From Escherichia coli (GTDB lineage: Bacteria > Pseudomonadota > Gammaproteobacteria > Enterobacterales > Enterobacteriaceae), in the NCBI RefSeq assembly GCF_044324785.1, contig NZ_CP172127.1: DNA of 64,000 nucleotides. One strand, written 5' to 3'. A model generated the notes under the pieces. That model had not been told where the DNA came from. It did no database searches and saw only the letters and a program-made list of their open reading frames with translations. Positions 57,155 through 57,433 of the stretch are shown here, one piece after another; position 1 is the stretch's first letter; every line of letters begins with the position of its first letter. The translations under genes and the position numbers were made by a program.

Positions 57155-57433
57155 CTAAACTTTCAGGAGATTTATTATGAATAAACGTACCCTCACGATT
57201 GTGCCATTCTTCTTACCGATATTCTGACACACATCATTAACTTTCTATTTTTACTCTTTTCTCCACCATAAAATCAATAAAAGCACTAACAGTAATTATA
57301 AATAAAAACAAAGCCAAAAATCTTGGTTCCAAAGCTGGTAACAACTAACCAGTTTAAATATACGCATCAAAATCAGATAAATATTTGAGGTATTGTCATA
57401 ACAAATAAACACCTATCACTGTTTTCTCCTTTT

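Follow-up and report, generated by a model that had tools for sequence, protein, structure and literature searches.

A 16-codon reading frame with a strong Shine-Dalgarno sequence in Escherichia coli: probable scar of a lost divergent SDR gene beside a LysR-family regulator

Introduction

How does a strong Shine-Dalgarno (SD) sequence come to lie at an ideal distance from an ATG that opens a reading frame of only 16 codons? Such a site is found in a 64,000-nucleotide stretch of E. coli DNA (contig NZ_CP172127.1), which is called the window throughout, in the interval between a LysR-family regulator gene (LysR1) and a remnant of an OYE (NADH:flavin oxidoreductase) gene. An earlier note, made from the letters alone, offered two readings of it, a leader peptide or a chance ORF. 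Attenuation leader peptides such as those of pheL, trpL, and hisL are short ORFs of 14-30 codons placed upstream of the genes that they regulate. In the characteristic architecture of LysR-type regulators (LTTRs), the regulator and its target gene are divergent and share a promoter region, and T-N11-A is the motif of the boxes to which these regulators bind. The comparisons described here make it very probable that the site is an inert gene scar, in which a lost and presumably LysR-regulated SDR gene has left its promoter/operator, SD, and ATG, followed by an accidental frame of 16 codons, and neither a leader peptide nor a small gene is supported as a reading.

The Initiation Signals and Their Expectation by Chance

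When the sequence was re-read, the CAGGAG hexamer, the ATG, and the 16-codon ORF were all present as the earlier note had claimed (Table 1). The gap between SD and start codon, which had been given as 8 nt, is a spacer of 7 nt (ATTTATT) between the AGGAG core at 57165-57169 and the ATG at 57177-57179. The letters around the SD, the ATG, and the ORF read ...CTTTCAGGAGATTTATTATGAATAAACGTACCCTCACGATTGTGCCATTCTTCTTACCGATATTCTGA, and three of the 16 residues of the encoded peptide are Phe. No RefSeq feature overlaps the small ORF in any genome inspected, and a full-text search of the literature with three variants of the peptide found no paper that contains any of them.

Table 1. Features of the locus, with positions counted from the first letter of the window
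Feature	Position	Strand	Remarks
LysR1, LysR-family regulator, 297 aa, HTH_1 + LysR_substrate	56144..57037	-	Pfam; stood divergent to the lost SDR gene
Putative ancestral LysR/SDR divergent regulatory region	57038..57176		139 nt here; 148 nt in SDR-keeping genera
TTAT-N11-ATAA dyad TTATTAGTAACAATGATAA, candidate LysR-type box	57114..57132		Pattern match; inside the block conserved across genera
SD-like CAGGAG	57164..57169	+	Probable vestige of the SD that served the ancestral divergent SDR gene; CAGAAGG where genera keep the gene
16-codon ORF, peptide MNKRTLTIVPFFLPIF, with TGA	57177..57227	+	ATG and first ~10 nt homologous to the SDR start
LysR2 3' remnant, stop + 17 codons, 54 nt	57237..57290	-	LysR2 intact in most E. 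coli with the locus
OYE gene upstream region	57303..57433	+	Moved beside the stub by the ~2.1-kb deletion
OYE pseudogene fragment, Oxidored_FMN	57434..57640	+	Pfam; internal ~893-bp deletion
ykgR, known small gene, 33 aa, MKENKVQQISHKLINIVVFVAIVEYAYLFLHFY	58122-58223	+	Annotated in RefSeq genomes
ykgM and ykgO, zinc-independent ribosomal protein paralogue genes	58587-58850, 58847-58990	+	Annotated in RefSeq genomes
Other AGGAG-N5-9-ATG sites	37097	+	All six sites of these two rows open ORFs of 156-628 codons
Other AGGAG-N5-9-ATG sites	45602, 42071, 18157, 8727, 2334	-	

By statistics alone, neither the SD with its ATG nor the length of the ORF rises above chance. Both strands of the interval 57038-57433 together hold three ATG ORFs of at least 16 codons, compared with 3.4 ± 2.0 in shuffled sequences, and AGGAG-N5-9-ATG occurs seven times on the two strands of the window, compared with 6.7 ± 2.5 in dinucleotide shuffles. 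The remaining six of these sites, however, each open a long ORF, so that the present SD and ATG are worth explaining. Statistics were insufficient to classify the site, and it was the comparative alignment that settled its class.

Make-Up and Deletion History of the Locus

This segment of the window corresponds to the region of E. coli from fdeC (eaeH) to ykgR-ykgM-ykgO, the last three genes lying just downstream of the OYE fragment. The setting between a LysR gene and an OYE remnant is borne out by Pfam for both neighbours, but the intergenic region that had been taken as a unit is a composite made by deletions. LysR1 itself scored under the cutoff of all named NCBIfam equivalogs.

The fuller layout is preserved in strain WCHEC4533, where LysR1 (-), 199 bp, a second LysR gene (LysR2, -), an alpha/beta hydrolase gene (+), and an intact OYE gene of 380 aa (+) follow one another. 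Comparison with this strain demonstrates that ~2.1 kb, including most of LysR2 and the alpha/beta hydrolase gene, has been deleted from the window. The C-terminal part of a listed 35-aa ORF at 57237-57344 (-) is the final 17 codons of LysR2. The OYE fragment is more than a simple truncation, since the 5' 167 nt of the gene, judged against the intact copy in WCHEC4533, are fused to its 3' end at 57600/57602, and the interior of ~893 bp is missing. Compared with strains N3 and WCHEC4533, the window also lacks 923 bp that contain a second aldo/keto reductase gene (AKR2) almost in full, and the 9-bp overlap of the flanks at the junction (56035-56043) suggests a microhomology-mediated deletion.

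The junction that brings the ORF beside the OYE fragment occurs in 89 of 5426 complete E. coli genomes, and this adjacency is a recent accident. In most ORF-bearing genomes, the ORF faces the stop codon and 3' end of the convergent LysR2; in the fuller arrangement, 9 nt on opposite strands separate the end of the small ORF from the LysR2 stop. Other strains show decay of a different kind. In O157:H7 ECP19-2498 (locus 1759-3194 of L083), the first aldo/keto reductase gene is truncated and LysR1 is replaced by a hypothetical ORF of 118 aa, and LysR2, the hydrolase, and OYE are all intact. Strain CFSAN004176 has lost everything from the stub to ykgR.

A Divergent SDR Gene in the Orthologous Loci

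For comparison beyond E. coli, 80 loci encoding LysR1 relatives were taken from other Enterobacterales, with one genome per species; most of these relatives are 80-95% identical to LysR1 in protein sequence. About 35 of the 80 loci were matched by the region upstream of LysR1 in blastn searches, and most of the matches end at position 57181 of the window, just beyond the ATG. An ORF that starts MKILVAGATGSIG... is divergent from the LysR gene in 30 of the 80 loci, 148-153 nt upstream of the LysR ATG, with its start at upstream position 149 in 26 of the 30 loci and one outlier at 226; it is at least 230 codons long in 24 of them. The protein, of ~260 aa, matches PF13460 NAD_binding_10 (E = 1.8e-35) and the NmrA-like family (E = 1.9e-12), and the divergent partner is accordingly classed here, by its predicted domains, as an NAD(P)H-binding atypical SDR.

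An alignment (A2) of 15 sequences over the block upstream of LysR1 demonstrates the positional homology. The block is collinear in Escherichia, Citrobacter, Raoultella, Buttiauxella, Tatumella, Pseudescherichia, Pantoea, Erwinia, Yokenella, and Entomohabitans, and its 140 nt have a mean column identity of 81% across genera. Column for column, CAGGAGATTTATTATGAA of the window stands against CAGAAGGTTTATCATGAA, with which the SDR genes provide their own SD and start codon. Because the SDR genes start at the same position of this alignment, the SD and ATG of the window are very probably the fossil start of the divergent partner. Compared with the outgroups, the regulatory region of the window allele shows a 7-bp deletion (TGATATT). 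It also holds, at the level of a sequence motif, a T-N11-A box in the shared intergenic part, and its TTAT-N11-ATAA dyad is a candidate LysR box.

Similarity to the SDR gene ends ~10 nt after the ATG of the small ORF. Local alignment of the post-ATG sequence of four alleles with six SDR genes gave z scores from -1.0 to 2.8, no better than shuffles. No similarity to the SDR coding body was detected in the stub; only the initiation region of the SDR gene survives, and its body has been lost. Two other histories were tried and set aside. The ORF body could have been the 3' end of the SDR gene, fused to its start by an internal deletion, but the resemblance was one seen by eye only and the local alignments stayed at shuffle level. 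A simple deletion would be implied if the LysR2/hydrolase/OYE block lay downstream of the SDR gene elsewhere, but tblastn found this block only in Escherichia loci.

Several side observations concern the distribution of the pair. In Enterobacterales as distant as Citrobacter, Raoultella, Erwinia, Pantoea, Tatumella, Serratia, Morganella, and Yersinia pestis, the LysR1 protein keeps 85-90% identity, and it is also found in assemblies labelled Chryseobacterium and Collinsella, where its presence is probably due to horizontal transfer or to contamination of the assemblies. In E. whittamii there are two copies, in one of which the SDR gene is internally deleted. Many genera share the LysR1-SDR pair as a whole at 85-90% protein identity, and this identity, together with the two copies in E. 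whittamii, suggests that the pair may be horizontally mobile.

A Second SDR Locus in E. coli

In 368 E. coli genomes, a PF13460 SDR gene is present in intact form, with ~93% identity to the E. whittamii gene. In ATCC 11775, it lies between hipA and a fimbrial operon (locus 3860-4783 of NZ_CP033092.2 2461150-2469919) and keeps the full conserved upstream block with the LysR box (compare window 57042-57181), the LysR gene being deleted exactly at its start. The same strain has the locus with LysR1 and the stub. Its cassette is thus split, with a regulator without its target at one locus and a near-identical target and operator without their regulator at the other, and LysR1 could possibly regulate the orphan SDR gene in trans.

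Allele Classes and Conservation of the Frame

Two classes of alleles carry the stub in E. coli. The short allele, at least 90% and mostly more than 95% identical to the window, is found in 1721 of 5426 genomes, 83 of which have the exact window sequence; ATCC 11775, Nissle 1917, and UTI89 are among the strains that carry this allele. The long allele, ~70% identical, is found in 487-491 E. coli genomes, including O157:H7 EDL933, and has a 7-bp and an 18-bp segment that are absent from the short allele. Since both segments are present in all outgroups, the short allele is derived. The TGA of the window ORF falls exactly at the junction of the 18-bp deletion, a junction specific to the short allele.

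Among sampled copies of the short allele (eight genomes and the window), the ORF is intact in nine of nine, at 96-100% nucleotide identity, a divergence too small to show or exclude selection. Most of these copies encode MNKRILTIAPFFLPIF. The differences observed are the nonsynonymous T5I and V9A and two synonymous substitutions, and one allele has its SD mutated to CAGGAT. Outside this class, the frame breaks down. Both sampled long-allele genomes (O157:H7 and CFSAN061770) and the near-identical contig L049 have ATG TAA, Escherichia sp. E1V33 has GTG with a 2-nt shift that leads to an unrelated peptide, the divergent Escherichia lineage L005 is without a start codon, and the 16-codon frame is absent from all outgroups. 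Conservation in related strains, which the earlier note had named as a check on the ORF, thus fails, and the peptide frame is not conserved. Neither conservation past near-identical strains nor purifying selection, the marks of a small protein, was found for a frame that is confined to the short allele.

Proposed Origin and Alternative Explanations

A scar of a lost gene would account for the site as follows. Positions 57164-57179 would be the surviving translation-initiation site of an ancestral PF13460 SDR gene of ~260 aa, and the conserved sequence upstream of them would be the matching divergent promoter/operator. This gene, divergent from LysR1 in many Enterobacterales, was presumably the target of LysR1. 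Its body was lost in the Escherichia lineage, and the start site now abuts unrelated sequence beside the LysR2/hydrolase/OYE block. The 16-codon frame would be an accidental by-product, its stop made by the 18-bp deletion in one allele class. Transcription and translation of the stub may continue under LysR control, but the peptide has no conserved function, and the ORF does not regulate the OYE fragment, which came to lie beside it only through later deletions. The comparisons show the deletion history, the homologous position of the start site, the missing gene body, and the lack of frame conservation; we infer that the SDR gene is under the control of LysR1 and that expression of the stub continues. 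Against the scar stand the intact ORF in every sampled short-allele copy of so widespread an allele and the AGGAG core, which is nearer to the SD consensus than the ancestral GAAGG.

Control of OYE by a leader peptide or uORF, through attenuation or translational coupling, is scarcely credible. It would draw on the position of the ORF, which in the window shares its strand with the OYE fragment and lies 206 nt upstream, and on the Phe-rich peptide. However, the two are neighbours only in the few genomes with the window's junction, where OYE is an internally deleted pseudogene; the full arrangement separates them by 2.1 kb with two other genes, and there the ORF ends so close to the opposite-strand LysR2 stop that it cannot be an OYE leader. 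The intact OYE genes of O157:H7 have no such ORF upstream. No terminator-like sites were found in 56900-57800, the predicted RNA fold of 57150-57440 (291 nt) was not significant (z = -1.34), and an Rfam scan at E <= 1 returned no match. The ORF is thus not placed immediately upstream of, and co-transcribed with, a regulated gene, the downstream OYE being a dead fragment; alternative terminator/antiterminator hairpins do not follow it, and neither the frame nor regulatory codons are conserved in relatives. Genome comparisons have effectively refuted this reading. The other half of the earlier alternative, chance, holds for the frame and its peptide but not for the SD and ATG, which appear to be inherited from the SDR gene. 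That an SD-like hexamer and an ATG met by pure coincidence in AT-rich intergenic DNA, without any history, is very improbable; the number of AGGAG-N5-9-ATG sites at shuffle expectation and the ORFs of this length expected by chance would agree with it, but the exact alignment of SD and ATG with a conserved gene start, in a 140-nt block collinear across more than 12 genera, does not, and A2 refutes it.

A young, lineage-specific micropeptide gene, which took over the promoter, SD, and ATG that the lost SDR gene left behind and whose hydrophobic 16-aa product is now functional, is an improbable but more serious rival. The consistent intactness of the ORF in the short allele, the strong SD at an optimal spacing of 7 nt, and the fact that the six comparable sites of the window all open long ORFs speak for it. 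On the other hand, intactness at more than 96% identity is expected without selection, two of the four observed substitutions alter the peptide, one allele damages the SD, and 16 residues are too short for a transmembrane helix; the ATG-TAA of the sampled long-allele copies, the absence of the ORF from the outgroups, and the empty annotation and literature searches also weigh against it. A related and quite improbable variant would have the SDR relic signals co-opted in the short allele, either for a new hydrophobic micropeptide of 16 aa or for a LysR1-dependent transcript antisense to LysR2. If true, it would be the birth of a proto-gene from a gene scar, caught in the act.

Significance and Comparison with Known Systems

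Collectively, the SD and ATG are very probably, on the evidence of the alignment, the relic initiation site of the ancestral divergent partner of LysR1. As an ordinary gene scar, the feature matters little in itself. It does carry a caution for the discovery of small ORFs, because a near-consensus SD that lies in a promoter region at an ideal distance from an ATG can be what remains of a deleted gene's start instead of a sign of a new small gene or leader peptide, and such fossil starts are quickly revealed by comparison with distant genera rather than with conspecific strains only.

Compared with pheL, trpL, and hisL, the site is alike in being a short ORF with a good SD upstream of another gene and with some Phe codons, but it differs in that a terminator/antiterminator and a run of regulatory codons are missing, no intact gene lies downstream, and the frame is not conserved. 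It is closer to the pseudogene stubs of variable regions of E. coli, with which it shares several independent and strain-variable deletions (AKR2, LysR2 with the hydrolase gene, and the OYE interior). Unlike in those stubs, the coding body is here wholly gone, RefSeq leaves the stub unannotated, and the detection of pseudogenes by protein similarity is blind to it. Set against divergent promoters of LysR-type regulators and their targets, the locus differs in that the target is gone, with the SD, the ATG, and ~10 nt left. It nevertheless resembles them in the LysR gene and the opposite gene start lying ~140-150 nt apart, in the T-N11-A dyad within the conserved block, and in the PF13460 SDR target that stands at exactly this position in other genera.
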